Positions 11,051 to 41,128 of a stretch of DNA of 64,000 nt are shown piece by piece. A program made the position numbers and the translations under genes. Below the pieces are notes generated by a model. It saw only the letters and a list, made by a program, of their open reading frames with translations, was not told the DNA's origin and did no database searches. The stretch comes from Alphaproteobacteria bacterium (GTDB lineage Bacteria; Pseudomonadota; Alphaproteobacteria; RF32; CAG-239), in contig JAGBDC010000024.1 of assembly GCA_017937705.1 (NCBI GenBank), forward strand, positions 11,079 to 75,078. Reading direction: 5' to 3'. Numbering within the stretch: position 1 is the first letter of the stretch; every line of letters begins with the position of its first letter.

Positions 11051-11053
11051 TTT

Positions 11054-12181: not shown

Positions 12182-12199
12182 CTTTATCTCCGCTTTTTA

Positions 12200-13846: not shown

Positions 13847-13859
13847 TTTCTATGACTTA

Positions 13860-15299: not shown

Positions 15300-16548
15300 A
15301 ATCCCAAACCCCTGTTTCCGGGTTGTATTTTATTGAATTCATCTCAAGTCCTGAGAATTTTGTTAATAAACCGCTCCAAATTCTCGGATTATAACCGGAT
15401 GAGAACTTGAATTTAACAGAATTATATACATTCTGCTGCGGTGATGTATATGTGTAATCTGTCAAAGTTACGCTTTGACCGATTGATTGGAAAAAGTCAT
15501 TCAAATTATTTTTCAAATCAACCAAATTTTTAGTCGGTTCAGACGCTTCCGTATCAATAGAACCCAGAGAAATTGCTGCCATAGCTGTATTACCGTCGCC
15601 GGAAATGGATCTTGCCGAAAAACTAATTCCGGAAGCTGTTAACGCCTGATCAATAATCGAAATTCTGCCGATTTCTCTTGTCCATGATGTCGCTGTTCCT
15701 CCAAGGTTACAGTCTATACCACCGATTTTCCAACCTGGAGGCATAATCCTCATCAAATCTAACGTATTAGTATAGCAACGTTGCATGAAAACAGCCTGAA
15801 TTGGCAAGCTTTCCCATGGTTTTGGCTCTGGCGGAATTTCCTGCTGTTTTACCATCTTCGGCTGAATAGGTACAACCACCGGTGCCGGAGGCGAATCGAA
15901 AAGCATCATAAACAATTTGTAGACGACAAACAAAGCAACAAAAGCAACCGCACCGGCAATCATGTAAAAAGTCTTACCTTTTGTATTAATCTTTTGTAAC
16001 TTTACTCTATTACCTCTTTGCATAAGGTCTGCAATATCAGGATATAAAGTATCGTCAATTCCCCATTCCGGAGGTGCTATTTTCAGACGCCAATCCGGAA
16101 CCATCAACATGCTCATAAATTGCTTCTTAGCATCTTCTTCTGAAAGATACAGCATGTCGCCGTTAGCTAAAATTACATCATCACGTACACAAACATACCA
16201 CCACCCATTGTTAACTTTGAATACAGCCACAAATGATGGTTGATCCGCCAGTGCTGTAGCCACGGTAACCGCACCTACTTGCTCGCCTTGCTTATACCCA
16301 TCTGTAGATACACAAATACCGAACTGAGGCGTTTTTCCTTTCTTTATACAAAATAGGTCGGCTCCTTCCAAAACGCCTTGTGACGATTCGATAACTTCCG
16401 GTTGAGGATTTTCTTGATTTTGTAATGATTGCCAGAATAGGCTGGTAGCATATTCAATACCATCCACATAGATACTTGATCCCCAAGTTCTATTGGTGTC
16501 AATCACGCCATTTGATGTATTTACGTCTTCTACCATTGTTTTCCTCAA
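15274..16548 (-). CDS. bitopic pilus assembly protein (R64 PilO-like position and topology)
   Basis: 424 aa. A ~190-aa cytoplasmic domain, a single TM helix (FYMIAGAVAFVALFVVYKLFMMLF), a Pro-rich linker and a periplasmic domain follow one another. It sits between the secretin and the PilP-like gene, as in pilN-pilO-pilP of R64. The assignment rests on position and topology only. Confidence 0.5.
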   Translation of the reverse strand: MRKTMVEDVNTSNGVIDTNRTWGSSIYVDGIEYATSLFWQSLQNQENPQPEVIESSQGVLEGADLFCIKKGKTPQFGICVSTDGYKQGEQVGAVTVATALADQPSFVAVFKVNNGWWYVCVRDDVILANGDMLYLSEEDAKKQFMSMLMVPDWRLKIAPPEWGIDDTLYPDIADLMQRGNRVKLQKINTKGKTFYMIAGAVAFVALFVVYKLFMMLFDSPPAPVVVPIQPKMVKQQEIPPEPKPWESLPIQAVFMQRCYTNTLDLMRIMPPGWKIGGIDCNLGGTATSWTREIGRISIIDQALTASGISFSARSISGDGNTAMAAISLGSIDTEASEPTKNLVDLKNNLNDFFQSIGQSVTLTDYTYTSPQQNVYNSVKFKFSSGYNPRIWSGLLTKFSGLEMNSIKYNPETGVWDYEGAIYAL

Positions 16549-16553
16549 TAATC

Positions 16554-18155
16554 TTAGTTATGTACACGAGTCTCCGGATTTAATGGAGATTCCAAAACTA
16601 CCGGTGTTAAGATGATAACCAAAATACTTCTGCTTTTATCTGCAATCGCAGAGCCGCCTAACAAAGAATTATCAGCAGAACCCAATCCTGTTTTCAATGC
16701 TTCATTTTCAGCTCTTTCATAACCGGTAAGTACCAATGATTCACCAGACTTTAACACAACTTCTTGTGAGAAACCGCGAGATTCTATATGTGGGTTTTGA
16801 ATATATTGCCCGCCTTCATCTCCGATATCAACTCTTTGTAATTCTAATAAATCTGACAAAGTGAGGTTAAACATTACCATTAAACGCCCATGTTCCAATA
16901 TTCTTGGTAAAACACTCATAGTAAAGCCTGTTTCAACTTCTTCTGTCTCTACAGAGATATCATAGTTTTCACCTTCCCCACCGCTATTAGTCTTAGTGAT
17001 TTCTGAAATATAGTTTTGTTTTTTTACTACTTGAATAGGAGCAGGTTTGTTGTTCATAGTCGTAACCGTACCGCTGGTAATCATATTAACGGTATTTTTC
17101 TTTGATAAAGCTTGAATACCAGCTGTGACATTCCAAGTACCGGGCATTACTGTCATTGCTAAATTTTGAGTTATATCATCAGCAATTCCTGTTGAAGGAC
17201 TGACTATGTCAACTAACTCTCCTGCATCGTTACCCCAAGTTCCTCTCAAATCTAAGCCAAAAGTATCATTATCAGTAATATTAACTTGTAAAACCTTAAC
17301 ACTGATTGCAACTTGACGAGACAAACGAGCATTTTGCTCATTTATATACTTGGCAACTTTTCTAATATCAGTAGGTGTTGCGGTCAAAGAAATAATTCCA
17401 TTGCCTGAGTCGATAGATATTTTTGCATCTTCAGCTACCATCGACTTAATAGAATCTTCGATGCTTTTCCATAATTCCATCTCTGCTTTTGAATCTAAAG
17501 TCAAAGCTGATGTACCTCCACCGCCGGAATCTGTGGATGAACCGCCGATATTATTAGATAGGCTTTGTTGTGTCGGTAAGCTGTACAAAACAAAAGTCTT
17601 GGTGATGTACTTATAGAATTGAATTTCATTCTTTTCATATCTCCACCAAATTCCGAAACGAGAAGATATCTCGTCTAACAAGCCACTTAAAGGACCACGA
17701 TAAGAAACCAACATTTTTCCCGGAGCAGCCCAGTGAGCATTCATACTTTCGGGAGTCGGTTCATTTTCTTCAGCTGCCTTTTTAATATCTTCTTCCATAC
17801 TTGGAGCATAACGAACATTTAAAGAGGTGATTTTGCTAATCATGTCCCCAATTTCAAACAAAGTAATAGGTCTATTACTGATGAGAGTAACCCCTTCTTT
17901 TGTTTCAAAATTAGCCGGTAAAGGAGCTCCGTCATATTCTACAACGCTCTTATCGCCAAGCCAAATTTCATCCTTAACGCGAACTACATCGTTAGGAGCT
18001 ATCTCTGTAGGCATTTTGGCTTTTTCTTTTAATTCTGTTGTAGCCTCTACTTCTCTCTCTAGGGTAGCATCCATGCTTGTTGAAATGCTGCAAGCTCCGA
18101 TAATTGCGACTACACCGAAACTTAATCCGTATTTAATCCATTTATTCATATGCAT
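16554..18155 (-). CDS. outer-membrane secretin lipoprotein (R64 PilN / BfpB-type)
   Basis: The track ORF runs to 18176. GGAGGA favours an ATG at 18155 or 18149 (MHMNKWIKYGLSFGVVAIIGAC, lipobox IIGAC). The C-terminal secretin domain (PF00263 pattern) reads GFTMSVLPRI...VVLKSGESLVLTGYE...SILVIILTPVVL. The start overlaps the upstream stop. Confidence 0.85.
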   Translation of the reverse strand: MHMNKWIKYGLSFGVVAIIGACSISTSMDATLEREVEATTELKEKAKMPTEIAPNDVVRVKDEIWLGDKSVVEYDGAPLPANFETKEGVTLISNRPITLFEIGDMISKITSLNVRYAPSMEEDIKKAAEENEPTPESMNAHWAAPGKMLVSYRGPLSGLLDEISSRFGIWWRYEKNEIQFYKYITKTFVLYSLPTQQSLSNNIGGSSTDSGGGGTSALTLDSKAEMELWKSIEDSIKSMVAEDAKISIDSGNGIISLTATPTDIRKVAKYINEQNARLSRQVAISVKVLQVNITDNDTFGLDLRGTWGNDAGELVDIVSPSTGIADDITQNLAMTVMPGTWNVTAGIQALSKKNTVNMITSGTVTTMNNKPAPIQVVKKQNYISEITKTNSGGEGENYDISVETEEVETGFTMSVLPRILEHGRLMVMFNLTLSDLLELQRVDIGDEGGQYIQNPHIESRGFSQEVVLKSGESLVLTGYERAENEALKTGLGSADNSLLGGSAIADKSRSILVIILTPVVLESPLNPETRVHN

Positions 18156-25915: not shown

Positions 25916-27475
25916 ATGATAAAGATTAAGTCTATTAGTTTGGGTTTTGCGTGTTCGTTATTGGTTTCAACATCTGCATTTGCAGGATTACCGACAGTTG
26001 ACTTTGGTAATATTGCGGGTACTGTTGGTATTGTTACGCAAGGTTCAACAAGTATTCAGCAAGGTATCAGTGTTATCACAAATGGAGCAGATTTAAATTC
26101 CATAATCGGAGATTCGGCCGGTTCTCTGGGAAAGTTTCTTAAGGGAGCTATGGATGCTATGGGGGGCGATGGTGAAGGAGGGTTATCTTTTCAGGATGCT
26201 CTCAAGCGTATAAATGATGGTGTTAGCTCCTTTAATAAGGCTAAAGAGGAAGTAAAAAAGAAAAAAGAAGAATATCAAGCTCTGATGGATACGGTCAGCA
26301 CAAAAAGAGGAACGTCTGAAGAGGCTTACGATGATGGCGAAACAGCCGGAGCGGAATATGGAGCTGAGGAGTATTATGGTAACTATCCTGAAGCAGACTA
26401 TGACGTTAACAATATTTCCACCCAACAAATTGTTAACAAAGGAGCGATGTTAGCTGAAGACGGAGCCTTTGAGCCTTTAGCTCCGATGATGCAGGCTCCT
26501 GTTGCTCTTGAAAAAGAGCCTTCGGGAGGAAAGATGCTTGCTGAACCTCAAATGGATGTCCAAAAAAAGAAACTTAACGGTCAAGAAGCAGCGATTGCCC
26601 CTATGGCTGTGGCAACTGAAGGTATGGCAGCAGAGGAAGTTGCTGAAGTTAAAGCCGAAAATAAAACGATATTGCCAACTAATAGTCTAAAAAGACGAGC
26701 TTTTGAAAAAGCGGCTCCTATAGGAGAAGGTGCTGCTGTTCAAGCTGTCAAACCGGCAATAGAAAAACCGGAGCTTAAAAAAACGTTGCCGACAAAAGCT
26801 GAGTTAACAGATGCAGTGGTTGCAAATACACCGGCTGTTGCTCCTAAAGTTGAAGCTCCTGCTGTTGTTCAGCCTGCTGTTCAGGGAAAGTTCAGGGTTT
26901 CTCCAAAAGCTTCATCGTTGAAAATGGATAAGCTCTCAAATAATACAAAAAAATTCTCTACTCGTTTGATGTTTGCTGCTAAGAAGAACAGCAATACAAA
27001 AGGAGCTAATACAGATGCGTATGGTAATTTTATTAGCGCACTACCTAAGAGATGTGGAGTTAGTATTGATGATTTGAGTGATGAAAAAAAATTAAAAGAA
27101 TGTCTTGATAAGGTAATAACCGAAAATAATGCTTCAAACCAATTTGATGCAGCTCTTAGTCGTAAGCAATGTCGAAGAATGGTTTATGATACCGTTGTTG
27201 CACTTATGGCAGAAGCATCTTTGGCAAAACTGGAAGCTTCTTCATATGTGGATACCTTAGAAGATCAGGAGAAAAAGATCGGTAATAGTAATAACACCAG
27301 AGACGATTCTGCTGCATTGGCGATGAGTAATGAGCAGATGCAAAAGTTGATTAATAAAATATCATTACTTACATCCTCTCAAATATTGTTGGATACAGTT
27401 ACTCAGTTGTGCTCAATGCAAGATGATGTTGTTGAAGATAATTCGGATAGTGGCGATAACGATGGAGAAGAATAA
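25916..27475 (+). CDS. secreted T4SS-associated protein, no TM segments; VirB5/TrbJ-like N-terminal motif (tentative)
   Basis: 519 aa. The signal peptide is followed by AGLPTVDFGNIAGTVGIVTQGSTSIQQGI, which is reminiscent of the IPVxD...Q start of mature TrbJ/VirB5. An acidic, Ala/Pro-rich middle and a helical C-terminus follow. Confidence 0.4.
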   Translation: MIKIKSISLGFACSLLVSTSAFAGLPTVDFGNIAGTVGIVTQGSTSIQQGISVITNGADLNSIIGDSAGSLGKFLKGAMDAMGGDGEGGLSFQDALKRINDGVSSFNKAKEEVKKKKEEYQALMDTVSTKRGTSEEAYDDGETAGAEYGAEEYYGNYPEADYDVNNISTQQIVNKGAMLAEDGAFEPLAPMMQAPVALEKEPSGGKMLAEPQMDVQKKKLNGQEAAIAPMAVATEGMAAEEVAEVKAENKTILPTNSLKRRAFEKAAPIGEGAAVQAVKPAIEKPELKKTLPTKAELTDAVVANTPAVAPKVEAPAVVQPAVQGKFRVSPKASSLKMDKLSNNTKKFSTRLMFAAKKNSNTKGANTDAYGNFISALPKRCGVSIDDLSDEKKLKECLDKVITENNASNQFDAALSRKQCRRMVYDTVVALMAEASLAKLEASSYVDTLEDQEKKIGNSNNTRDDSAALAMSNEQMQKLINKISLLTSSQILLDTVTQLCSMQDDVVEDNSDSGDNDGEE

Positions 27476-28119
27476 TGAAAAAAACATTGTTAATTTTTGT
27501 CGTGTGTCTAGGAGTGCTGTTTGCTAAGCTTTCCTACGCCGATTTTGAGGCTGTTGAAACTACTCTTACGGTATTAGAGAAAGGTCAAAAGAAGGCTGAG
27601 GTTATTCAAGAAAAGACTAAGATGATAGAGTCTGCTTATAATTCTCTCCGTCAAGGGGATTTAGGGCCATTAGCTGATTTGGCAAATGAATATAAGATAG
27701 AAAAAGTCAATGTTTTGCAGTTTAACAAATTAGCCGGAATAACAAAGCTAGGAGATATGCAAAGTGCTATTGAGACCGAAACTATTCCTAATTATACTAA
27801 CAAAAACCAAATAGAAACCTATAACGAAGCACAAGAAATTAACGATGCTATTTTAAGAGAGGATTTGGCAAGATTGTATGCCTTTGCCTTTACTCTTCGA
27901 ACAGATATGGCGAGGGAAAACAAGGAAAGGGATGATGAAGCTAAGCAAACAGATAATGCCAGAGAAATGCTTCAGTTGGCTAATGAAGAGGCAACGGAGA
28001 GTTCTAAAAGAATAAATCGTATTGTAGATATGATAAGTTCAAGGTACGAGATAAATTTAAGAATAGTATTAAAAACATTGAGTATTGATGTTGAAGATGA
28101 AGAAGGAGATGCGGAATGA
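27475..28119 (+). CDS. secreted helical protein of VirB5-like size (tentative)
   Basis: 214 aa with a signal peptide (LFAKLSYA|D) and a predicted all-helical body. The start overlaps the upstream stop (TAATG). Confidence 0.35.
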   Translation: MKKTLLIFVVCLGVLFAKLSYADFEAVETTLTVLEKGQKKAEVIQEKTKMIESAYNSLRQGDLGPLADLANEYKIEKVNVLQFNKLAGITKLGDMQSAIETETIPNYTNKNQIETYNEAQEINDAILREDLARLYAFAFTLRTDMARENKERDDEAKQTDNAREMLQLANEEATESSKRINRIVDMISSRYEINLRIVLKTLSIDVEDEEGDAE

Positions 28120-29324
28120 AAAAGTACACGTTAGGAATAATCACTGCATCTGTTATAGCGTCAGCTATGCCTGTTGAAGCTCAAGCTTTTATATTACCTC
28201 CTTTTAAAATTGATTTTAGCACAATTGCTAACAAGGTGTTGTCAACAACAAACACAATTTCTGAAAAGGTCAATGGAGTACAAGAGCAATCAACGGCGAT
28301 TCAAACAATAATTCAATATGGGGAAGGTGCAAAGGAATTATGGGATTTTAATAATTTATTGGATAAGTTGCCAATAAAGCAAACCGCTAGCGCTAAAGAT
28401 TTAAAAGAACTTGAAAAGCAACAAACAGAGGCTAAGGATAAAGAGGCACAAGATGTAGCAAATGCTACTCGTGAAGCCAATGAAAAGATTGCTGGAATAG
28501 ATGAAAATATTAATGAACTTGAACAAGACAGTCTTGAAAATCCCCAAAATGCAAAAGAAAATGTTAAAAAAGCTGAAGAATTAAGAAAAGAGAAGAAAGA
28601 GATAAAAAAAGGCCTAAAGGAAAGAAGAAAAGCAATTAAAAGTGCTACAAAGGAAATAGCAAAGGGATTTAAAGAAAGTAAACAAGCTATAATGAAAGAG
28701 CTAAAGTCCTTAAAGAATTTTATAAAAACCGGAAAAGATTATGACTCTACCGAAGATTTGAAAGGTACTGTTGAAACTCTGTCTCCAAAAGAGGGAACGG
28801 AAATAAATGCTAATATCATTCATGCTTATAGAGAGCTGTATAATATTATGTATTGGAATGATTTTAATACCGTTGTTCTTCGTGGTAACGATATTCGTAC
28901 CGCATTGCAACACGATAATGAAGAAACTGAAGATGTTAAGAAAAAGTCAGTAGAAATGGAAGGGGCAAGTGCATCAAGAGCTGCGTCGACAATTGATTTG
29001 AAAAAAAGAAATATGCAAGCTTTGTTAAATTATACCGAAATGATTCTCCAGCAAATAAAATTGAGTATAGCATACGATTTGGCAAGTAATAAATTTAATC
29101 AAATCAATGCTAATACAGCTATAGGAACATTTAATTTTGATAATTACAAATTCAATCCGGAAGAAGAAAATATAGAAGTAGAGAAAACGGAAGGCAGTGA
29201 GTATGGCGAACATATTGAAATAGCAAAAGATCTTGCCACTCCGTCTGCTGAGGCTATTGCTGATAGTATGGAAAATATTAAACAGTCTGCAGAACAAACA
29301 AATGATGAAGGAGAAAACAAATGA
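28116..29324 (+). CDS. secreted coiled-coil T4SS-associated protein
   Basis: 402 aa. The signal peptide is followed by AFILPPFKIDFSTIANKVLSTTNTISEKVNGVQEQSTAIQ, the same motif class as 25916. The body is a Lys/Glu coiled coil. It has ATGA overlaps on both sides. Confidence 0.4.
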   Translation: MKKYTLGIITASVIASAMPVEAQAFILPPFKIDFSTIANKVLSTTNTISEKVNGVQEQSTAIQTIIQYGEGAKELWDFNNLLDKLPIKQTASAKDLKELEKQQTEAKDKEAQDVANATREANEKIAGIDENINELEQDSLENPQNAKENVKKAEELRKEKKEIKKGLKERRKAIKSATKEIAKGFKESKQAIMKELKSLKNFIKTGKDYDSTEDLKGTVETLSPKEGTEINANIIHAYRELYNIMYWNDFNTVVLRGNDIRTALQHDNEETEDVKKKSVEMEGASASRAASTIDLKKRNMQALLNYTEMILQQIKLSIAYDLASNKFNQINANTAIGTFNFDNYKFNPEEENIEVEKTEGSEYGEHIEIAKDLATPSAEAIADSMENIKQSAEQTNDEGENK

Positions 29325-32300
29325 TGAAGCTGATTAGATTTTTTTCTTTAAGTTTGCTTGTAACCTGTTTGATATGTTCATCAGCAAATGCGCAGTTGAT
29401 TTTTGGTATGTCTCTTGATTTTCCCGGAGAGGCAGGGGGAGCAATTCAAAATGTTCAACAAACTTTGACAACGATTCAAGAAGAGGTTGTTGCTAAAGTA
29501 AAAAAGAATGTTACAAAAATTAAGGCAGGGCTGGAAAAGTATGCCGGTAAAATAAATAAGTTGCTGGGAAAAATTCCAGGCGTTAAAGAATCAGAAAATA
29601 CTGGTTCAGTTGATATTTATGATGCAGAAGCTGTGCAAGCTGCATTTACAGAGTTATTTTTACAATATCCCAGTACCGACCCACGTATAAATACTGCTTA
29701 TGAAAAGAAAGGAGTGAACCTTTACTATGATACTCTGGTTGAAGTAAGAACAGCCATTACCGGCCTAGAGGATCAACTCGCATCTTTACGTTCAGAGGTT
29801 GAACAATTTGGTGAACAGGCTATAAATCCTGATGCCGGAGGAGATGCTGCCGATTCTGAAGATGAAAGTGCCGTTTATTATAATGCATATTTAGCAAATC
29901 GTAAATTTAATGATATTTTGAAAATAACTGAAGAAGTTGTTGCAATGCAAAATCAATACTTTGCAGTTCGCAATCTTCGTCAACCGAGAACGGTTGTTCC
30001 TGCTAGAGCTCCTGAAAATAGTGCGCCTCCTAAAAAAACATCTTCTTCGACAATATCTGTTCATAATCGTTTTGCTTTTGCGCAACAGTTTAAGATGAAA
30101 AATGTTGCTTCAAAGCTCATATCTAAAGCAAAGGATACAAAAGGCGTAAAGGCCACCGCTAAAAAAGCGTTACCGGTTGCAATTACAAACACAAATGCTC
30201 CAAAAGATGATGGTATGTTTGTTACTCATGTAGCTCCTTCTCCTAAATCATTGTTGAGCGGTAGCGAAGAAGAACTTGCATCACTGAATAAAATATCGGA
30301 TATTCAAAAAACTTTAACCGAAGCCATGAATATTCATAATGCTATTCAACACATGCCGTCGTACAGAGATTTGTATAAACAATATGATTTATATAAAAGA
30401 TTGCATGTGAGAGCTGTTGAAGCCGTAGATGCAGCTGATAAATGTGTTTTGCAATACCTCGGGCGCCGATATGAAGAACCGAATACAGTATGGTACGGAC
30501 AAAAGAATGCACCTAAAGATACTTGTGATTATGATAATCGAAAAGGATTATCCGGTTGGACTATTAGCTTATTCCAAGTTACAAATGCTGCTCTAAGTAG
30601 CGGACTGGATGTAGATGCGTTTGGTGAAATGGATATAGATACATCTCAAGCGCCGGCAAGTGCATCGAGTACGGAAATTAATTTGGAAGAAAAAGAAGCA
30701 AATAATGATTCTTCAACATCATCATTTGCTTTTGCTAGTCCGAGTAAAGAAAAAGAATTCTCAGATTCTACACGGCAAATAGAGTTGTTGAATTGGGAAA
30801 TTGGGCGCAAAGCAGCTCAACTATTGGCAGCGGATCAATATTCTGAAAAACCGATTTACGGAAAAGCAAAAAATCCTTATCCGTTATGGAATGATCAAAA
30901 GGCATATTATGACCAATATATTGAAGGTAAGTATGAAAATATAAAAACCTATATCAAATATATAGATGTAAATTCAGTAGCTATTGGTCTTGTTGAACTT
31001 CTAAATAATGGACTCGAAGAAGGCAAAGAAAAACAAAGAAATTCGGAAGCTATCGGTATAATGGAGAAATATATTTCTTCAAATTCCACTACCAATAGTA
31101 AAGCGATGGCTTTGTTATCTCAAAAAACAAAAGAATTATCGAGTATGCAAAGAAAGCACGCCGAAGCTTTGGCTCCTGCGGAAAACAGATTAGTCGATTT
31201 ACAGCAACAGCTTGATGCTTGGACAACATTGATAAATAGTACTAATGAAGAAATTAATATTGTCGATGAAGATACTTTGCAAAACAAAACAAAAATGAAT
31301 TCCTCTTATAATCAAATGGAAATAATGCACCAAAAAAATATGACCACCGGTTCAACTTATGCTTTGGCTAAGCATACAATGGAAGAGGCCGGTAAAGCAT
31401 ATTCTGCAGGCATTGAAAAGTTAGGAAAACTTCGTGTAAATGTTAAGAGATTTGAAAATGCTCGCAATAAAGTCCAAGAGCAAATAAATTTGTTGCAAGA
31501 AGAAATTGATGAGCAAAAACAAGCTCAGCAAGATGAGGTTGCTGAATTTGAACTTGAGTATGAAAATAGATTTGCAGAGTTGCAGAATAGCCTAGGTGAG
31601 GTAGAAGAACTATCTGATTTTTATAAAAAGTTGAAAGCCAAATATAGAAAAGCAGGGCTAAAAAGTTTGGTTAATAAGGTTGATTCCCTTGTAGAAGGAG
31701 CTCGAGATTGTGCTGTTAAAGAGGTGGACGAACATTACCAATCATTAAAAGCTATGTCAGCGGACAATTCTTTATATATGACATATAAAAATCCTGCTGT
31801 TGTACAAAAGCATGTAGCACTTATAAATGATTTGAAAAAATTACCGAAGGATTGTTTGCGTCAAAAAGCTTCTTCTGCAGTTGGGATATTAAATGTTAAT
31901 ACTGAAGATGTAATATCAATAGCAAGATCATTATTCAAATCGGCAATAATGAAATCTATTTGTTCAAATTATGATTGTGAAAAAGCTGATACACAATATT
32001 TTGTCGGTGTTCCGGCAAAACCAAATGATTTTACTGCCCCAAAAGCACCGTTGACCGCAAACTATCCTCCGGTTAGAGATATTGTTCACCTTGATACTAC
32101 TGACTTTAAGAAAATAGAAATGGGTGAAAAAAATAAAGATGAAGAACCAATTTTTGAAAAATTAAGTAAGAAATATGGAAGAATAGGTAGAAGTGCTTTC
32201 TTGAATTATGGTGTCGAAATGCCCTATGTATGGCAATTAATGCTTTCTGATAAGGCTTATGTTGAAAAAGGCATGAATTTATCAGCAGCACTAGAACGAG

Positions 32301-33247
32301 GAGGGGAGGATAAAGCTTTCATGAGAGGAACAATGCTTCCTTGTCGTATAGGACAATACATGGTAGACGTAAAACTGCAAAATGGTAAAAACGTTAAATA
32401 TAGTGTTGTTAATACAAAGAAAGAAGATTCTTCTGAAAACGTTAGGATGTTAAATTCACTTCCTTATTGTAGTGATTTAAGGATGGCAAACACTACTCTG
32501 CTCAGAATAGAAGATATAGACGTTGATAAAAAAATAGACGGAGCATCTGCTGACAGAATAAGTTCTCCTAACCCGAGTGAGTTAGGAATGTTCTTACGTT
32601 ATGTACGTAATAAGTATTTTGAAGGACTATATATAAATTCTCGTCCTATGTATGGGTACTCTATGTTGATAAAGAAAGAGAAAAAAGCTGAAAAAACAGG
32701 TAAATACAAACTTACAGCAGAAGATAATATCTATAATCGTGCTATGTTCACTACTAACCAAATCGGGGAGTTCTTAACTTTCGTTGACAAAGAAACTAAT
32801 ATAAGAAAGAATGTCGATGAAATTGAAGCCGGTATAGAGGAAGTAAAAGAAGAACTCAAAACTCTTTTCGAAGAAATGGGCTTTGATTTGAAAGATAATT
32901 TTAATTTGGCTTTAGATAGCGATTATAATTATATTATCAATAAGCTAAAAGAACGCAAAAATACTTTGATTTCTCAAGCTTCAGAAAAACTGGGAACAGT
33001 TTCCAGGGCAAATCCGACGGTTGTTGAACGCTTTAATAAAGTTGATAATACCAACAAAGCTTTGAAGCAAGATTCCACAGCTTTGATTAGTCTTACTTTC
33101 CGTACAAAATCAGGCAGTACGTTAACTGAAAGCATAAAGAGTGAGAAAGCAAATCAAAAAGTAATTGAAAAATCCAGAAATGAGGGTTATTCTGCTATTG
33201 AGAAAGAAATTAAAAATTACAAGCAGCCAGTCTGCATGTCTTATTAG
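29321..33247 (+). CDS. giant secreted T4SS-associated protein (1308 aa), function unknown
   Basis: The signal peptide (CSSANA|Q) is followed by LIFGMSLDFPGEAGGAIQNVQQTLTTIQEEV, then long coiled-coil stretches. I found no hydrophobic TM segment after the signal peptide. Confidence 0.4.
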   Translation: MMKLIRFFSLSLLVTCLICSSANAQLIFGMSLDFPGEAGGAIQNVQQTLTTIQEEVVAKVKKNVTKIKAGLEKYAGKINKLLGKIPGVKESENTGSVDIYDAEAVQAAFTELFLQYPSTDPRINTAYEKKGVNLYYDTLVEVRTAITGLEDQLASLRSEVEQFGEQAINPDAGGDAADSEDESAVYYNAYLANRKFNDILKITEEVVAMQNQYFAVRNLRQPRTVVPARAPENSAPPKKTSSSTISVHNRFAFAQQFKMKNVASKLISKAKDTKGVKATAKKALPVAITNTNAPKDDGMFVTHVAPSPKSLLSGSEEELASLNKISDIQKTLTEAMNIHNAIQHMPSYRDLYKQYDLYKRLHVRAVEAVDAADKCVLQYLGRRYEEPNTVWYGQKNAPKDTCDYDNRKGLSGWTISLFQVTNAALSSGLDVDAFGEMDIDTSQAPASASSTEINLEEKEANNDSSTSSFAFASPSKEKEFSDSTRQIELLNWEIGRKAAQLLAADQYSEKPIYGKAKNPYPLWNDQKAYYDQYIEGKYENIKTYIKYIDVNSVAIGLVELLNNGLEEGKEKQRNSEAIGIMEKYISSNSTTNSKAMALLSQKTKELSSMQRKHAEALAPAENRLVDLQQQLDAWTTLINSTNEEINIVDEDTLQNKTKMNSSYNQMEIMHQKNMTTGSTYALAKHTMEEAGKAYSAGIEKLGKLRVNVKRFENARNKVQEQINLLQEEIDEQKQAQQDEVAEFELEYENRFAELQNSLGEVEELSDFYKKLKAKYRKAGLKSLVNKVDSLVEGARDCAVKEVDEHYQSLKAMSADNSLYMTYKNPAVVQKHVALINDLKKLPKDCLRQKASSAVGILNVNTEDVISIARSLFKSAIMKSICSNYDCEKADTQYFVGVPAKPNDFTAPKAPLTANYPPVRDIVHLDTTDFKKIEMGEKNKDEEPIFEKLSKKYGRIGRSAFLNYGVEMPYVWQLMLSDKAYVEKGMNLSAALERGGEDKAFMRGTMLPCRIGQYMVDVKLQNGKNVKYSVVNTKKEDSSENVRMLNSLPYCSDLRMANTTLLRIEDIDVDKKIDGASADRISSPNPSELGMFLRYVRNKYFEGLYINSRPMYGYSMLIKKEKKAEKTGKYKLTAEDNIYNRAMFTTNQIGEFLTFVDKETNIRKNVDEIEAGIEEVKEELKTLFEEMGFDLKDNFNLALDSDYNYIINKLKERKNTLISQASEKLGTVSRANPTVVERFNKVDNTNKALKQDSTALISLTFRTKSGSTLTESIKSEKANQKVIEKSRNEGYSAIEKEIKNYKQPVCMSY

Positions 33248-34118: not shown

Positions 34119-34307
34119 ATGACTAAAAAGTTGATAATAGTTCTCGTAATAATGTTGCTAACCGGTTGCGGTCTTTTTGGCTCGCTCTATGAGCCGGAGC
34201 CGGTGGAAATAGGTAAAGCTACGGATGAGTTGAAACTTTCACCGTGTGCTTGTTTGCAGGTTGAGTTGCCGAAAACATTACCTGATTGGTTTGTTGAAAC
34301 TATTTAA
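34119..34307 (+). CDS. small lipoprotein in the VirB7 position
   Basis: 62 aa with lipobox LLTGC. It lies between the two virB8 genes and upstream of virB9, as rvhB7 does in Rickettsiales. The assignment rests on position and lipoprotein nature only. Confidence 0.55.
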   Translation: MTKKLIIVLVIMLLTGCGLFGSLYEPEPVEIGKATDELKLSPCACLQVELPKTLPDWFVETI

Positions 34308-35048: not shown

Positions 35049-36719
35049 GTGGATAAAGCTATGCTATCAAAATCTATAAAATTAAGTATCTTAAGCTTGT
35101 TAGGGGTTATTTTTGCTGAACAAGCCTTTGCTCAAGCAACCATTAACAGCATGGATCAAAATGCTGATCAGTCACAAGGACAATATCAGCCTATGGATAT
35201 GAGTTATGCCGGATTTAATTCTTTAGGTATGATGCAAAGTGCATGGCTTGATCCCTTGCAAAACTTAGGAGAAGGACAATCTAAGCCGGCATATTCGAAA
35301 TATTATTGGTCACCGGATTTGGTTCTCCCTCTTCGTTTGAGAGAAGGTATGATTACTCTCATCAATTTTCCTGAATGGGAAATGGTAGAAGATATATATA
35401 TCGGTGATAACTCTACCTTTGACGGACAGATTTCAGGTCCTAGTACTCTGTTGCTATATCCTCGCAAAGGTGCAAATGTCGGTGTAGATACCAATATTAT
35501 CGTATTTGGACGTTCCGGTAATCGTTATGTCTTTTATGTTCGCAGTGAAGGCGTAAACACCGAGCGCTTAACAAACTCAATAGTTGATATTGATGTAATA
35601 GGTGATGAAAACGGAGGATCCGGCTTGGGAAAGGCTGGAGCCGGTAACAGTGGTGGTCGTGTTAATGCCAGTAAATTTTATGGAGCCGGCGGAAAATCTG
35701 TAGATTCAACTTTTACTAAGAGAAATCAAAAAAATAATTGGGTAGAGAGTGTTCCGCTCGATCCTACAAAATTTCGTTTTGACATAGAAGTTTATGTTCC
35801 AAACCCTGACGATGTTGTGATTGCTCCGGAACGTGTATGGCGAGACGATATTTTCACCTATATAGATTTAGGTGCAAAGTCGCTTAATATGACACAACGC
35901 CCGATAGTTACTCTCATTGTTGAAAGAATGGAAGTTCCTGTCGGTTTCAGAACTAAAGGGCCTAATAATCGTTTAATTATTGTTGAAGCCATCGGTGATA
36001 TGGTGCTCAGAAACGGAAAAAGAATTGTCTGCTTAAAATTACGTCGTTCGGATGATGCAGGTATTGAAGACAGTATTACTTATGCTGATGACATTACTGA
36101 CAACGAATGGGACAGAGGTGCAAAAATCCCCGAAGGAATAAAAGCCAGAGCAGGCGGTGCAAGCTATCCTGATTTAAGCATGGGAGGAGCTGGTGTTGCA
36201 GCTAATTATCCGATGGTTGATACAAGAGGCGGTGGTCAATTTGCATCTCCTGAATATGGTAATAGCGGAGCTAACGGTTTTGGCATGATGCCAAATCAAG
36301 GAGGTGTTCAAGGTCAATACGGTGCAGAATATGATGCAGGAAATGGCGGATTCGATTATTCTAAAATGCATCGTATTCAAAATACACAACAATTTGATCC
36401 TGCGGCCAGTAACTTAGCAAGCCAATATCGTTTTGGTTCTGGTTTCAGTGATGGTGCCGGTTCTAATATCTCAATAGAATTAGGAACTGATGCTAATGTA
36501 GAAAACTTAGAAAATTTATGGGATAATTTATCCGGTAAATATTCTAAAATATTAAGAAGTTATGATCCGTTTTTCTCAGTTGATGCTCCGGCAGACGGAC
36601 AAGGAAAAGAGCTTTTCCATCTTCGTATCGGACCGGTAAAAACGCTCGACGAAGGTGATAGTGTTTGCAGTAAATTGGGTAGAAATGGTGTATTTTGTAG
36701 TGTGGTCAGGACCCAATGA
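35049..36719 (+). CDS. virB9: T4SS protein VirB9 with C-terminal SPOR-like domain
   Basis: 556 aa from a GTG at 35049. An ATG at 35061 after AAGGTGG is an equally good start. A signal peptide is followed by a VirB9/CagX N-domain (LPLRLREGMITLINFP...IIVFGRSGNRYVFYV) and C-domain (PERVWRDDIFTYIDLG...). A Gly-rich linker leads to ISIELGTD...FHLRIGPVKTLDEGDSVCSKLGRNGVFCSVV, which fits the SPOR (PF05036) pattern. Confidence 0.8.
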   Translation: MDKAMLSKSIKLSILSLLGVIFAEQAFAQATINSMDQNADQSQGQYQPMDMSYAGFNSLGMMQSAWLDPLQNLGEGQSKPAYSKYYWSPDLVLPLRLREGMITLINFPEWEMVEDIYIGDNSTFDGQISGPSTLLLYPRKGANVGVDTNIIVFGRSGNRYVFYVRSEGVNTERLTNSIVDIDVIGDENGGSGLGKAGAGNSGGRVNASKFYGAGGKSVDSTFTKRNQKNNWVESVPLDPTKFRFDIEVYVPNPDDVVIAPERVWRDDIFTYIDLGAKSLNMTQRPIVTLIVERMEVPVGFRTKGPNNRLIIVEAIGDMVLRNGKRIVCLKLRRSDDAGIEDSITYADDITDNEWDRGAKIPEGIKARAGGASYPDLSMGGAGVAANYPMVDTRGGGQFASPEYGNSGANGFGMMPNQGGVQGQYGAEYDAGNGGFDYSKMHRIQNTQQFDPAASNLASQYRFGSGFSDGAGSNISIELGTDANVENLENLWDNLSGKYSKILRSYDPFFSVDAPADGQGKELFHLRIGPVKTLDEGDSVCSKLGRNGVFCSVVRTQ

Positions 36720-39700
36720 GTAAAGAAGTGAGTAAAGAAGTTTTAACACATTCGGAAAGTTATATCAAAAAAACCAACCGCATAATTCTTGCGGTTGGTA
36801 TAACTTCTTTCGTGATTTTCCTTTTAGGTATGTATTTGCTCATGTCAAGTGATGAGCAAATAGAACAATATAGCGAACCTGTTTTCAGTCAAAACGATGA
36901 TGCTTTTAGTGTTATCAATTCTGCTCCGGTAGAGGATAGCATAGAATTTAGTGTTGTGGATGATGGAGTTGTTCCTATTACAACAACTCCTAATCCTATT
37001 GCATTGGGTCAAGTTGTTATCGGCGCAGATGCAAAAAATGTGCTGACAATAGGTACAAACGGAAAAGCTGCGGTAACGGTTATTTCCGTACAATTGGCAG
37101 AAGCTCCGTTTGATGGTTTTGAATATAACGACCAATGCTCCGGAAAAATTCTGCGAGGTAAAGAAACTTGCGATGTTACGATGAACTGGGTTCCTGTAGT
37201 TTCAGGAAATGTTCAAAATAATTTTATTATTTCTTGGCACGAAAGTAATGTCGGACAATCTAACGCAAAATCTGAAAAAGTTCCCGTTTTCGGAAACGCC
37301 GTAACTAAAGAAGATTGTAATTTTTGTGATACTAATGTGATAGGCGGGGGAGCTACCCTTGGAGGAAAGGATGGAGAAAAATCGGTTACTCAATCTCGAG
37401 CTATTGTAGGTCCGGATGGTTCGGTTATAGGATTTGCCGATGAAGACGGATATGTATATGATTCAAGCAATCAAGTTATAGGTCGTGTTAATGAAAACGG
37501 ACTGGTTGTTGATGGCGAAGGAAATATTATAGGTGTCGCTAACAACAGAAAGCTTGTTTATGATGAAAACGGAAACGTAATCGGTTATGTAAATCCTGAC
37601 GGCACGGTTGTTGATTTAAATGGTAACGTTATAGGTAGAATGTTACCCGATGGAACGGTAGTTGATTCTAATGGTAATGTAATCGGTCACGCTGTTGATA
37701 TGGGTTATGTTTATGATGAAAACGGTAATATCATCGGACGAGTGATGCCTGACGGAACCGTTGTTGATTTAGATGGTAATGTTATCGGACGTCTTAATGA
37801 AAAAGGCGAAGTAGTAGATGAAAGCGGAAATGTAATCGGTTATGTAACGAAAACCGGACGCGTTGCGGTTGATGAAAATGGTAACATTATTGGTGTCGTG
37901 ATGCCGGATGGCAGTGTGGTTGATGCCAATGGTGATGTTGTCGGCAGAGTAGATAAAGATGGAAATGTAATAGCAGACAAAAGTTTAACTGCTCAAAAAG
38001 TAAGTCGTCGCTTAGTTCATAACAAAGATGGGCAGGTTGTAGGCTTTGTAGATACAGATGGAACGGTTCGTGACTTTAATAATAACGTAATAGGTCGTAC
38101 ACGTCCTGATGGTACGGTTGTTGATACCAATGGTAATGTTTTGACTGAAGCGGGTTCCTTATTGGCTTATGATAATGATGGTAAGGTTATCGGCTATGTT
38201 GATAAGGAAGGTAATGTTATCGGCGAAGGTGGTAAAAAACTCGGAATTATGGCTGCTAACGGGATGATTGTCGATGGAGCGGGAAATATAATCGGTCGCT
38301 CTGCTCCCGAAAGCGATAAAAGCGCAACAATAAGCAAACTCGCTTATGATAAAAGCGGTAATCTTATGGGCTATGTTGACGGTGAAGGCAAAGTTCGAGA
38401 TTTTAAGGGAGATGTAATAGGAACTGTTGACAGTAAGGGGGAAGTTGTTGATAAAAACGGTAATATCATAGGAAAAGCCCCCGGACAGAAACTTGCTTAT
38501 GATAAAGATGGTAATGTTATCGGGTATATTGATGAAAATGGTAATGTTTACGATTTTGAAGGTAATCTTATCGGCAAAATGCAAGAAGATGGCACGATTG
38601 TTGATAAAGACGGCAATATAATAGGAACAGCCAGAGATGCCGAAAGTAATCTTCGTCTCGCTTATGATAATAGCGGAAGTGTTATGGGCTACGTTGACTC
38701 CAAGGGTAATGTATTCGGAGACAGCGGTAAAAAAATCGGAACTCTTAAGGAAGACGGAGAGATTATCGATGCGTTTGGTAATGTTATCGGCAAAATCAGT
38801 AGCGGAAAAAGTCGTCGATTAGCTTATGATAAAGACGGAAACGTCATCGGTTACGTTGACGAAAACGGTAATGTTTATGACTTTGAAGGAAATGTTATCG
38901 GTAAAATGCTTGAAGATGGCACAATTATCGATGAAAATGGAAATGTTATCGGACAGGCCGGTTTGATGTCGCGCCAATTAGCTTATGATAATAGCGGAAA
39001 CGTTATGGGCTATGTTGATGAAAACGGAAACGTTGTTAATTTTAACGGTGATGCAATCGGAAAAATGGTTTCTTCCGGAAAAATAGTTGATTCCGCTGGA
39101 AAAGAGATAGGATCTGTTGGTGGATTTGCAAATATTTTGTTGGATAAAAACAGTAAAATTATAGGTTATGTCGGAAGCGATGGAGAAGTTTTTGATACAG
39201 AAGGTAATGTAATCGGTTATGTAGATGAAAAAGGTGAGATAATAAATAATACCCAGACTGTTTTGGGTAAGCTAATTCAAGATCAAATGATTCCGGTAAC
39301 TCCTAAAGGCGAAGTTTTAGGTATTGTTCGTAATAACGGAGATATCGAAAATGATGAAAAACAAATTGTCGGACGAGTTCAATCAAACGGATTGGTAAAA
39401 AGCCCCAGCGGTTCACGCATTATTGCTCGCATGGTAAAAGGCGGTTTAGTCGTCGGTCGCGGATGTAAAAATATCGGATATTTGGAAAAAGACGGAATTG
39501 TACGCAAAGCAAATACCGAAACCGGATACAAGGTAAATTTCGATGGAGTGGTTGTTGATGACAGTGGTCAATATATCGGTGAAGTTGTTGTTCCCGGACC
39601 TGTGTTTGATGATACCTGTACTAAAATCGGAGATGTCGGTACAGACGGAATTGTTCGTCAAAACGGCAGCTATGTAGGATGTGTTAATCCGGATGGCACC

Positions 39701-41128
39701 GTATTAAACGAAAAAGGGGATATTATCGGAGGTGTTTCAAGATCCGGAATTGCGGTTAGTTACAATGGAAACTTATTAGGAAAAATATCTGAAAACGGTT
39801 TGGTATTTTCTCCGCAAGGTCAAGCTGTCGGTTGCGTAGGTACATACGGAGATGTGTTTGATAAAAAAGGAGCATATTTAGGAAAAGCATTAGAGCATAC
39901 GTATGCTTATGATTTAGATGGAAACTTCCTAAATATGGTGAACTCAAGTGCCCGTGTTCCGATTAGGGGGCAATCTTCAGGAAAATTATTGGCTCACAAC
40001 GTGATTATTGATGAAAACAGCAAAGTCATAGGTGTCGCCGTAAAAGCCAAAACAACCATGATTGATAAGCAAGGAAAAGTTATCGGTCACTTATTCCCTG
40101 ACGGGCATGTCTATGACGGAAAAGGCGTATCTGCCGGTAAGATGTATGGAGACGGTTTCAGTTTCTATAATCATCAGTTAGGCCGCCCTGTAGCATCGGG
40201 TCAGGTTGCTGATTTCGGAGGAAAAGTGGTAGGTATTGCCGGATATAATGGTGAAGTTGTTACTCGATTTGGCGAAAAACTAGGTCGTTTAGATGCTAAA
40301 GGATTTTTCTTTGACAATAAAGGTGATTTGAAAGGTGGTATCGTAAAACGCGGTGCAGCTATCGGTTATGATGGTGCTTTTTTAGGATATAGCTTATCAG
40401 ACGGAAGAATTATCGATTTGGAAGGTAAAAATGTAGGAAGAAGCACACCTGACGGAAAAGTATTAAATAATAAATCGGTTGTCGTTGGAGAAATTATATC
40501 GGAAGATATTGTGGTTGATGTTTGGGGAACATATAAGGGACACATAAACTCTTTAGGCGATGTAATCGACTTGAACGGAAAGAATATCACGGCAATTCTT
40601 CCGGGAGGTTCTACCGATAAAAACTTAAGTCTGCTACGTCGTGGTGCGGTTATTGATTTTAGCGGTAAAGTTATAGGTTCAGTAATGCCTAACGGAACGG
40701 TTATAGATGTTCTAAATATTGTTATCGGTCGCTCTTTATCTGACGGAAACGTTCTGAACAATTCCGGAAAACTTATCGGAGAAATTGTTGACGGTGATTT
40801 AGTTATCAATGGCGAAGATAAAGTAATAGGATATGTGAGTATAGACGGTTCGGTTATAGATAAAAACGGAGCGGTTATAGGAAGAACTCTTTCTACGGAT
40901 TTAGCTGTAGACAGTAATGATGAAATCTTAGGACGCATATATAAAATCGGAGCTACCGTTTTAGGCAACACCGGAAGGTATATCGGACGATTGTCGTCTA
41001 ACGGGTCTGTAATAGATACCGAAAATAAAATTATCGGCTACCTAAAGAGTAACGGCTCATTTATCAATCTTGATAAACGTGTTGCCGGATATGCTCTTCA
41101 GGAAGTGGCTAAAAATCGGAGGAACTGA
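36716..41128 (+). CDS. membrane-anchored giant repeat protein (1470 aa; ~17-residue DGxVVDxxGNVIG repeats)
   Basis: The ATGA overlaps the virB9 stop. An N-terminal TM helix (ILAVGITSFVIFLLGMYLLM) is followed by a ~110-aa Ig-like module. From about aa 225 to the C-terminus the sequence is an uninterrupted array of repeats, for example PDGTVVDLNGNVIGRML / PDGTVVDSNGNVIGHAVDM / GYVYDENGNIIGRVM. Confidence 0.85.
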   Translation: MSKEVSKEVLTHSESYIKKTNRIILAVGITSFVIFLLGMYLLMSSDEQIEQYSEPVFSQNDDAFSVINSAPVEDSIEFSVVDDGVVPITTTPNPIALGQVVIGADAKNVLTIGTNGKAAVTVISVQLAEAPFDGFEYNDQCSGKILRGKETCDVTMNWVPVVSGNVQNNFIISWHESNVGQSNAKSEKVPVFGNAVTKEDCNFCDTNVIGGGATLGGKDGEKSVTQSRAIVGPDGSVIGFADEDGYVYDSSNQVIGRVNENGLVVDGEGNIIGVANNRKLVYDENGNVIGYVNPDGTVVDLNGNVIGRMLPDGTVVDSNGNVIGHAVDMGYVYDENGNIIGRVMPDGTVVDLDGNVIGRLNEKGEVVDESGNVIGYVTKTGRVAVDENGNIIGVVMPDGSVVDANGDVVGRVDKDGNVIADKSLTAQKVSRRLVHNKDGQVVGFVDTDGTVRDFNNNVIGRTRPDGTVVDTNGNVLTEAGSLLAYDNDGKVIGYVDKEGNVIGEGGKKLGIMAANGMIVDGAGNIIGRSAPESDKSATISKLAYDKSGNLMGYVDGEGKVRDFKGDVIGTVDSKGEVVDKNGNIIGKAPGQKLAYDKDGNVIGYIDENGNVYDFEGNLIGKMQEDGTIVDKDGNIIGTARDAESNLRLAYDNSGSVMGYVDSKGNVFGDSGKKIGTLKEDGEIIDAFGNVIGKISSGKSRRLAYDKDGNVIGYVDENGNVYDFEGNVIGKMLEDGTIIDENGNVIGQAGLMSRQLAYDNSGNVMGYVDENGNVVNFNGDAIGKMVSSGKIVDSAGKEIGSVGGFANILLDKNSKIIGYVGSDGEVFDTEGNVIGYVDEKGEIINNTQTVLGKLIQDQMIPVTPKGEVLGIVRNNGDIENDEKQIVGRVQSNGLVKSPSGSRIIARMVKGGLVVGRGCKNIGYLEKDGIVRKANTETGYKVNFDGVVVDDSGQYIGEVVVPGPVFDDTCTKIGDVGTDGIVRQNGSYVGCVNPDGTVLNEKGDIIGGVSRSGIAVSYNGNLLGKISENGLVFSPQGQAVGCVGTYGDVFDKKGAYLGKALEHTYAYDLDGNFLNMVNSSARVPIRGQSSGKLLAHNVIIDENSKVIGVAVKAKTTMIDKQGKVIGHLFPDGHVYDGKGVSAGKMYGDGFSFYNHQLGRPVASGQVADFGGKVVGIAGYNGEVVTRFGEKLGRLDAKGFFFDNKGDLKGGIVKRGAAIGYDGAFLGYSLSDGRIIDLEGKNVGRSTPDGKVLNNKSVVVGEIISEDIVVDVWGTYKGHINSLGDVIDLNGKNITAILPGGSTDKNLSLLRRGAVIDFSGKVIGSVMPNGTVIDVLNIVIGRSLSDGNVLNNSGKLIGEIVDGDLVINGEDKVIGYVSIDGSVIDKNGAVIGRTLSTDLAVDSNDEILGRIYKIGATVLGNTGRYIGRLSSNGSVIDTENKIIGYLKSNGSFINLDKRVAGYALQEVAKNRRN
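38159..39290 (+). repeat. higher-order tandem repeat inside the giant gene (~7 copies of a ~51-55-codon unit)
   Basis: The units begin LLAYDNDGKVIGYVD, KLAYDKSGNLMGYVD, KLAYDKDGNVIGYID, RLAYDNSGSVMGYVD, RLAYDKDGNVIGYVD, QLAYDNSGNVMGYVD and LLDKNSKIIGYVG. Units 3 and 5 look roughly 80% identical at DNA level by eye. Confidence 0.6.

Follow-up and report, generated by a model that had tools for sequence, protein, structure and literature searches.

A candidate set of diverged and expanded VirB5-like proteins in a type IV secretion locus without VirB6 from gut Alphaproteobacteria

Introduction

In type IV secretion systems (T4SSs), the pilus is believed to be nucleated on a central stalk made up of VirB5 and VirB6, VirB6 is described in a review as conserved in all T4SSs, and in the R388 system a VirB5 pentamer nucleates the polymerization of VirB2 (PMC12857230). 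Here we analyze a T4SS locus in a stretch of 64,000 nucleotides from an Alphaproteobacteria bacterium (GTDB lineage RF32; CAG-239; assembly GCA_017937705.1, contig JAGBDC010000024.1, positions 11,079 to 75,078 of the forward strand), referred to below as the window. Immediately downstream of the VirB4 gene, in the slot that VirB5 canonically occupies, four overlapping genes for proteins with predicted export signals, named p519, p214, p402 and p1308 after the lengths of their products, make up a single coupled unit:

23405..25837, + strand: VirB4 ATPase (Pfam CagE_TrbE_VirB, E 2.5e-11), the upstream neighbor that defines the VirB5 slot
25905-25910, + strand: Shine-Dalgarno sequence AGGAGG, read from the sequence, 5 nt upstream of the p519 start
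25916-27475, + strand: p519, open reading frame (ORF) of 519 aa
27475-28119, + strand: p214, ORF of 214 aa
28116-29324, + strand: p402, ORF of 402 aa
29321-33247, + strand: p1308, ORF of 1308 aa
33261..34019, + strand: first of two VirB8 paralogues (Pfam VirB8, E 6.8e-18), the downstream boundary of the module

Our best reading is that these genes encode a lineage-specific, fast-evolving, Sec-exported and mostly alpha-helical set that fills the VirB5-VirB6 slot and whose paralogues are assembled from two building blocks: (i) an N-terminal head of about 50 residues, in which a hydrophobic-Pro-x-hydrophobic-Asp motif is followed by an amphipathic helix, in p519, p402 and p1308, and (ii) a C-terminal module, helical and about 120 residues long, in all four proteins, with a linker of ~240 aa (p519), a coiled coil (p402) or ~1,070 further residues (p1308) added between or after them. 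We give an about even chance to the proposal that the four proteins are a VirB5-derived, variable stalk or pilus-tip set; the description of the module as a diverged and expanded VirB5-like set in a T4SS locus without VirB6 is partly supported by the results given here.

The VirB5 family itself (TraC of pKM101, TrwJ of R388 and Agrobacterium VirB5; Pfam PF07996) resembles the module in its Sec signal peptide, in the position of its gene right after virB4, in a mature start of the type hydrophobic-P-V/T-x-D that runs into a long helix (compare GIPVIDPTAIARI of an Erythrobacter protein with GLPTVDFGNIAGT of p519) and in a helical C-terminal half. It differs in length, ~220-270 aa as against 402-1308 aa here, only p214 being VirB5-sized and that protein lacking the head motif, and further differences are the large insertions and extensions, the 4-7 paralogues per locus, the lack of a match to hidden Markov models (HMMs) and the lack of a VirB6 partner in the locus.

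In function, the Trw system of Bartonella comes closest by analogy; it has amplified variants of TrwL (VirB2) and TrwJ (VirB5) and no coupling protein (PMC2610397). As here, several VirB2 and VirB5-like surface components are encoded in one locus without VirD4, the locus is chromosomal in a host-associated alphaproteobacterium, and a variable adhesion role has been proposed; the Trw copies, however, are recent tandem duplicates of canonical size that have kept VirB6 and VirB7 copies, whereas the paralogues of the window are ancient and architecturally different and VirB6 is absent from the locus. That the module proteins are not recent tandem copies follows from the absence of mutual BLAST clustering together with their different architectures. 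Bordetella Ptl is similar in that Sec-exported proteins are encoded with a VirD4-less T4SS, in which docking in the place of VirB5 has been proposed (PMC12857230). It is different in that the pertussis toxin genes precede the ptl genes instead of occupying the B5/B6 slot, that Ptl retains VirB6 and that AB5-toxin domains are absent here. In the Cag system of Helicobacter pylori, the VirB5-like CagL is encoded with the exported, pilus-associated CagI and CagH, and the giant, repeat-expanded CagY is the VirB10 homologue. The likeness to our locus is one of layout, a VirB5-like protein and further exported proteins standing together in a host-interaction T4SS with a repeat-expanded VirB10; the C-terminal hexapeptide shared by the Cag proteins is absent here, however, and the repeats here are beta-flower repeats. 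General background on such systems is given in PMC3266215.

Results

A coupled unit of four exported proteins

Our reading of the sequence agrees with a first-pass annotation of this DNA on the four overlapping genes, their sizes and coordinates, and their coupling through TAATG, ATGA and ATGATGA overlaps. The p519/p214 junction reads gaaTAATGaaa (TAATG), the p214/p402 junction gcggaATGAaaa (ATGA) and the p402/p1308 junction acaaATGATGAag (ATGATGA). A Shine-Dalgarno sequence of the GGAG type precedes every start, lying inside the preceding gene for p214, p402 and p1308, and no strong terminator was found on the + strand between 25838 and 33260. The description of the proteins as escalating in size has to be dropped, as the series 519 > 214 < 402 < 1308 is not monotonic.

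Signal peptides, as had been claimed for all four proteins, were called heuristically from the n-region, which is basic in each of them, the hydrophobic core and the A-x-A-type site. Cleavage (slash) is predicted at AFA/G (p519), SYA/D, AQA/F and ANA/Q, and the -1 Ala of the site is kept in at least 80% of orthologues. Besides the signal peptide, no hydrophobic 19-mer occurs in any of the four, and none of them has a TrbL (PF04610) match or the polytopic pattern of four to six hydrophobic helices typical of VirB6/TrbL. The C-terminal tails of p519, p214 and p402 are acidic and of moderate conservation, with a net charge of -4 or lower in 14-48% of orthologues.

An N-terminal head that resembles mature VirB5

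Profile comparisons were made by HHalign, whose percentages are quoted throughout, with a VirB5 profile of nine proteins (7/9 match Pfam PF07996). For the mature proteins, the p519-family head profile of 208 sequences aligned with VirB5 at 83% (E 8.6e-6; reversed control 3%), in a register that starts at mature residue 1 in both profiles. The figure was 90.5% when two signal-peptide residues were kept and 95.2% (E 2.5e-8) when the signal peptides were included, about 17 of the 70 aligned columns being signal peptide in the latter case. The p519 head also aligned in register with that of p402 (87.8-89%) and more weakly with that of p1308 (46%), and gave no alignment with p214, whose N-terminus lacks the P-x-x-D head and reached only 1.5-10% against VirB5. 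Control segments taken from internal coiled coils stayed under 8% when compared with the heads and under 3% with VirB5. No significant match resulted when the family profiles were set against individual canonical sequences of VirB5, TraC or TrbJ.

The mature start of p519, AFA/GLPTVDF, belongs to the hydrophobic-P-V/T-x-D type, its orthologues having IPVTD, WPTLD or IPAID, and the motif is looser in p402 (PPFKID) and in p1308 (GMSLD, but IPTID in the related loci L012 and L013). The head Asp is conserved in more than 90% of the p519 family and at least 80% of the p402 family and is followed, ~36-40 residues on, by a conserved Gly, both being position-specific. The earlier proposal of three VirB5-like N-termini, the motifs of which were quoted correctly, thus draws graded support from the profile comparisons, which pick out the same three proteins (83-95% for the p519 head against VirB5 and, against the p519 head, 88% for p402, 46% for p1308 and nothing for p214), and none from the HMM libraries, which did not recognize the proteins.

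A shared C-terminal module and divergent architectures

Full-length profile comparisons revealed a C-terminal helical module common to all four proteins, by virtue of which p214 belongs to the family as well. Residues 386-512 of p519 aligned with 88-209 of p214 (87.5%, E 3.6e-6, 123 columns), p214 with ~98-154 of p1308 (77%), and ~204-281 of p402 with ~94-170 of p1308 (67%). In 10/10 family pairs the forward alignment scored above both reversed-profile controls, and the forward alignments were long and collinear. Residues ~232-320 of p402 matched the C-terminal half of VirB5 (65%, E 6e-5; reversed control 0.6%), and the N-domain of p1308, of ~230 residues, matched almost the whole of an Erythrobacter VirB5 over 181 collinear columns (57%) and the VirB5 profile at 2.8-30%. 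The four proteins can be divided as follows:

p519: signal peptide 1-23; VirB5-like head 24-~133; linker ~134-375; C-module ~376-512, Cys-containing
p214: signal peptide 1-22; C-module ~88-209, shared with p519 and the p1308 N-domain
p402: signal peptide 1-24; head 25-~71 (FILPPFKIDF...); coiled-coil insert; C-module ~204-354
p1308: signal peptide 1-24; candidate VirB5-like N-domain 25-~240; conserved helical domain ~316-560
p1308, residues 591-757 (nt 31091-31591): antiparallel helical hairpin in the AlphaFold model, helices 591-671 and 678-757, ~80 residues each
p1308, residues ~860-1308: C-terminal region, alpha/beta, Cys-containing
p1308, nt 33227-33244: C-terminal motif ...P-x-x-C-x-x-Y, present in all orthologues listed as P-x-(Y/F)-C-x-x-Y-COOH

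Conserved residues include D29, G65, C380 and C396 in p519 and D33, G69 and G71 in p402, and the conserved cysteines of p519 (C380, C396) and p1308 suggest an extracytoplasmic location. The p519 linker of ~240 aa is poorly conserved, rich in Ala, Pro, Glu and Lys and without regular structure in a very-low-confidence AlphaFold model, which places helices, with low confidence, at 30-133 and 376-500. For p1308, residues 1-1200 were modeled with a predicted local distance difference test score (pLDDT) of 68, confidently only from ~330 to 1200, further helices follow the hairpin, and strands make the segment ~1008-1105 beta-rich. With the ~1,070 residues added to the two modules, p1308 is for the most part conserved, partly globular sequence and not stalk. 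At its C-terminal end, C1305 and Y1308 are each kept in at least 80% of 69 orthologues, which are only ~22% identical overall, and the C-x-x-Y end recalls a C-terminal 'plug' that has been reported in PilC/PilY1, the tip adhesin of type IV pili (bioRxiv 10.64898/2026.09.18.752573).

The arrangement in related loci argues that these parts are modular: in some six-gene loci the BLAST-linked p519-family protein stands second, with a signal peptide of its own, and in one locus (L028) the p519 C-module matches a separate gene. The first-pass picture of VirB5-like heads on increasingly long stalks is therefore too simple, given the C-module in all four proteins, the unstructured-looking linker of p519 and the largely conserved, partly globular p1308; the description of the proteins as coiled-coil rich applies to the p402 insert and fails for the middle of p519 (~134-375), apparently unstructured, and for the beta-rich strands of p1308.

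Plasmid relatives with a clear VirB5 in the same slot

The closest plasmid match to the VirB4 of the window is that of a Microvirga plasmid (38% identity, compared with 22-26% for classical plasmid VirB4s). The T4SS of this plasmid has the same layout as the window, with a 273-aa exported protein after VirB4 that starts AQVPVLDSN, and a relative of this protein in an Erythrobacter plasmid T4SS of similar organization, of 251 aa and starting GIPVIDPTAIARI, passes PF07996. The Erythrobacter, Sphingosinicella and Microvirga loci each encode a short VirB5-like protein and, besides it, another exported protein (402-468 aa once trimmed), the first ~200 residues of which match VirB5 at 87.8% over 171 columns before a C-terminal extension begins. 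A VirB5 domain with an extension is accordingly an architecture ancestral to this T4SS clade. This second protein shares with the window module a signal peptide and the slot between VirB5 and the VirB7-like lipoprotein, and its motif 'ADPGKIAGTVAEI' resembles 'DPGNIAGTV' of p519-family orthologues; only weak profile similarity (13-46%) connects it directly with the families of the window, and the plasmid systems, unlike the window, are plasmid-borne, have a relaxase and VirD4 and include only two such proteins.

The stretches fetched for the Erythrobacter and Sphingosinicella loci, the latter of which ends at VirB10, showed no VirB6, and the only polytopic candidate in the Microvirga locus is a 228-aa protein with four transmembrane (TM) segments. 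A tblastn search with the plasmid VirB5-like proteins against all plasmids returned only one or two relatives each. The fetched stretches of Microvirga and Erythrobacter also encode a MobA/MobL relaxase, a DnaB-like helicase and VirD4, and MOB-suite classes two of the three plasmids as non-mobilizable. 'Hypothetical' is the annotation given in the plasmid records to VirB4 (2/3), to the VirB5-like protein (2/3) and to the second VirB5-like protein.

A module kept in every readable relative and evolving fast

A scan of a species-representative genome collection with VirB4 yielded 258 relatives, of which the best 80, 77-99% identical, were kept. Nearly all of these come from uncultured Alphaproteobacteria that live in the gut of humans, ruminants, poultry or mice, with names such as 'uncultured Azospirillum' and Candidatus Scatocola. 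The interval from VirB4 to VirB8 could be read in 62 related loci with VirB8 in reach, and a module of exported-protein genes lay in it in all 62, so that relatives do carry the module, with four genes in 35 of them and five to seven in the others (not always the four that the first-pass annotation had in view). A signal-peptide-like N-terminus was present in 97% of the 332 module ORFs of at least 150 aa; none of the 332 was polytopic, and only two had a further hydrophobic segment. On BLAST clustering p519, p214, p402 and p1308 fall into separate families, to which a few extra families are added, and module paralogues reach 1,654 aa.

Across the same loci the identity is ~78% for VirB4 and 12-22% for the module proteins. 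The ratio of nonsynonymous to synonymous substitution rates (dN/dS), computed against the two closest relatives (VirB4 98-99% identical), was as follows:

VirB3, VirB4 and VirB8: 0.00-0.05 (VirB4 0.01)
p519: 0.17
p214: 0.12-0.17
p402: 0.07
p1308: 0.11

Values of 0.07-0.17 indicate real coding sequence under purifying selection, and the four genes evolve 7-17x faster than VirB4 by this measure, as would be expected of exposed components. No paper describing a secretion system of the RF32 lineage was found in a narrow full-text literature search.

The surrounding operon

The operon runs from two VirB2 genes through a 454-aa VirB2-like protein, a hairpin, VirB3 and VirB4 to the four genes, and continues after p1308 with VirB8, a 62-aa lipoprotein, a second VirB8, VirB9-SPOR, a 1,470-aa beta-flower protein, VirB10 and VirB11; it ends with a hairpin and T-run after VirB11, just ahead of tgt. 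Housekeeping genes on both flanks place the T4SS locus on the chromosome. Neither VirD4 nor a relaxase is encoded in the operon. Besides VirB4 and the first VirB8, its components are:

20852-21190 and 21274-21612, + strand: two VirB2 pilins (Pfam TrbC, 33.3 and 30.9 bits, above threshold)
21627-22991, + strand: 454-aa VirB2-like protein (Pfam TrbC, 12.9 bits against a cut-off of 27.9, sub-threshold)
34119..34307, + strand: VirB7-like 62-aa lipoprotein between the two VirB8 paralogues, with lipobox LLTGC and motif LKLSPCACLQ in its translation
35049-36719: VirB9 homologue with a CagX domain, a Gly-rich middle and a C-terminal SPOR peptidoglycan-binding domain
36716-41128: 1,470-aa protein with one N-terminal TM segment, nearly all beta-flower repeats (Pfam Bflower_2, E 1e-103)
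41131-45453: VirB10 of 1,440 aa, beta-flower repeats ahead of the TrbI domain

Of the three VirB2 paralogues that had been claimed, two thus pass the Pfam model and the third does not. This 454-aa protein has a signal peptide and a VirB2-like hydrophobic hairpin at residues 114-163 and is extended at its C-terminus by ~290 aa that are rich in Gly, Ser, Ala and Asn, and its dN/dS of 0.13 is fast, on par with the four module proteins. The motif SPCAC(I/L)Q of the 62-aa lipoprotein also occurs in small lipoproteins encoded by the T4SS loci of the Microvirga and Erythrobacter plasmids, and the 62-aa protein is probably the VirB7 of this T4SS clade. The giant, repeat-bearing VirB10 recalls CagY.

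Discussion

Homology of the four proteins to VirB5 is, on these sequence comparisons, probable and not proven, since no single link reaches the 95% usually demanded and merging the C-modules into one profile does not help. Several observations weigh against it. Without signal peptides every HHalign link falls below that figure, helical and compositionally biased sequences can inflate HHalign scores, and the merged profile of the four C-modules lowers the VirB5 link to 3.6%. Neither Pfam nor NCBIfam gave a VirB5/TrbJ match at E <= 1 for any of the four proteins, and PF07996 is absent among the 25 most-matched Pfam families listed for 59 p519-family N-termini, those families being coiled-coil families only; two positive controls did match the PF07996 model, TraC with 97 bits and the 251-aa protein of Erythrobacter with 30.3 bits (cut-off 24.7). 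When PDB sequences were searched with profiles of the p519-family N-terminus and of the p1308 family, only coiled-coil noise came back, the best match (22 bits) being the gp26 coiled coil. Among 1.84 billion representatives, a HMMER profile built from the p519 head matched 173 clusters, all within the lineage, and the 150 of these clusters listed were all N-terminal matches in mostly long proteins, with no canonical VirB5 evident, no Pfam scan of the matches having been made; 130 homologues in a large protein collection bore no informative name or domain. The AlphaFold model of full-length p519, with 29 homologues, has a pLDDT of 41, and that of the p1308 N-domain is below 50; the helices placed there with low confidence (38-74, 121-168 and 182-220) follow an order compatible with the VirB5 fold, a three-helix bundle with a globular appendage (TraC, PDB 1R8I). 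Foldseek found no VirB5 structure and no significant or geometrically sensible match for the p519 and p1308 models (PDB and BFVD for p1308). Lastly, no VirB6/TrbL-like polytopic membrane protein is encoded within 20852-46436, the protein on which VirB5 normally sits.

The last point also speaks for a rather unlikely alternative, according to which the four proteins are not derived from VirB5 and are periplasmic or outer accessory subunits of an 'expanded' T4SS (compare those specific to Cag and Dot/Icm), where they would enlarge the stalk or cylinder or replace VirB6, the N-terminal likeness being convergent or a docking peptide. The absence of a VirB6-like protein extends from the locus to the 62 related modules, the machine is expanded in other respects too (VirB9-SPOR, the 1,440-aa VirB10 and the preceding 1,470-aa protein, both with beta-flower repeats), p1308 is mostly conserved, partly globular and of no known fold, and the HMM libraries see no VirB5. 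This account leaves unexplained, however, why the VirB5 likeness is in register at the N-terminus, collinear beyond it and above the reversed controls, and why the plasmid relatives have a clear VirB5 and a VirB5 domain with extension in the same slot; a dN/dS so far above that of the core would also be unusual for buried scaffold subunits. The same low scores could mean that there is no relationship at all. If the proteins were unrelated, exported coiled-coil proteins alike in composition, the head motif would be signal-peptidase site context followed by an amphipathic helix, and conventionally sub-threshold links, HMM searches dominated by coiled-coil noise and a low-confidence p519 model are what one would see. 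We hold this to be very unlikely, because the reversed-profile controls were lower in all ten family pairs, the conservation of the head Asp and Gly is position-specific, the internal coiled-coil controls scored below 8% against heads and below 3% against VirB5, and the module is syntenic with a true VirB5 in the nearest plasmid systems.

A further possibility concerns what the machine does with the proteins rather than what they descend from: as in Ptl, a Sec-exported complex of helical toxins or adhesins might assemble in the periplasm and be pushed across the outer membrane by the T4SS, its head docking on the pilus or stalk. The signal peptides on all four proteins suit such two-step cargo, for which Ptl provides an example and pertussis toxin has been viewed as a mimic of VirB5 (PMC12857230), and the operon, closed by a terminator after VirB11, lacks the VirD4 and relaxase that the plasmid relatives have, although VirD4 could be encoded elsewhere in the genome. 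A toxin might even be read from weak Foldseek matches of the p1308 hairpin to the ClyA-type pore-forming toxins AhlB, SmhB and MakA (E 0.2-0.6), but these are non-significant and rest on long helices only, and we rejected the likeness as a long-helix artifact; Pfam, NCBIfam and PHROGs (0 matches for the four proteins) revealed no enzymatic or toxin domain. With the genes standing amid structural genes, in the VirB5/VirB6 position, in every relative, we consider the cargo explanation decidedly unlikely. A tape-measure likeness of p1308 was rejected as well, the BFVD Foldseek alignments having TM-scores of 0.06-0.16 and root mean square deviations of 40-60 A over long helices only, and no confident HMM or fold match supports a phage tail, tape-measure or flagellar identity (PHROGs, Foldseek against BFVD, PDB sequence searches), the kind of match that the first-pass annotation had named as telling against VirB5.

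For a VirB5-derived stalk or tip set, the whole-fold homology, assembly, location and function that we infer would fit together in the following way. After Sec export, the heads would assemble on a periplasmic stalk, as VirB5 does in R388, and would be carried outward on the pilus or stalk, a polymer of VirB2; the variable parts, together with the hairpin and C-terminal domain of p1308, would then be displayed to the target cell, and by analogy with the described systems a pilus-tip or adhesin role may be envisaged. A bolder proposal, which we think rather unlikely in its entirety, is that of a clade-wide T4SS without VirB6, in which VirB5-derived exported paralogues make up the periplasmic platform or stalk as well as a modular, fast-diversifying distal tip (including the giant of ~1,300 aa with its hairpin and invariant C-x-x-Y 'plug'); with this tip, abundant commensal Alphaproteobacteria of the gut, as yet uncultured, would contact host or bacterial cells together with the adjacent type IVb pilus. 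With no VirB6 in the operon, 4-7 VirB5-like paralogues evolving ~10x faster than the core and a giant, repeat-bearing VirB10, the locus offers a natural test of the VirB5/VirB6 stalk model, and it suggests that a gut lineage widespread in humans, ruminants and poultry possesses a contact apparatus that has yet to be described and that is in principle similar to Cag or Trw.

Further features of the locus

The pilin genes are separated from virB3 by a strong hairpin of terminator type at 23005-23034, with a stem of 13 bp and a T-run behind it; as an attenuator, it could keep pilin output high relative to that of the machinery. Upstream of the T4SS and divergent from it, a type IVb pilus operon (9783-20520, - strand) encodes two PilS/bundlin-type pilins, T2SSF, T2SSE, PilO, a secretin, TcpQ and an acidic protein of 530 aa without a family match. 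The proximal genes of this operon, those of the 530-aa protein, TcpQ and the secretin, adjoin the T4SS in about 46-48/60 relatives, the count for PilO being 39. In the gap between virB11 and tgt, two ORFs that overlap in different frames (46542-46968, - strand) are together type IV pilin-like, with the N-terminus ...QSGRSMVEMLGVLAI, and may represent a frameshifted pilin gene. Farther downstream, at 53984-55636, a 550-aa protein with ~14 predicted TM segments and no Pfam match is encoded directly upstream of two Proton_antipo_M genes (NuoM/NuoN- or Mrp-like), birA and the gene for RNase J.

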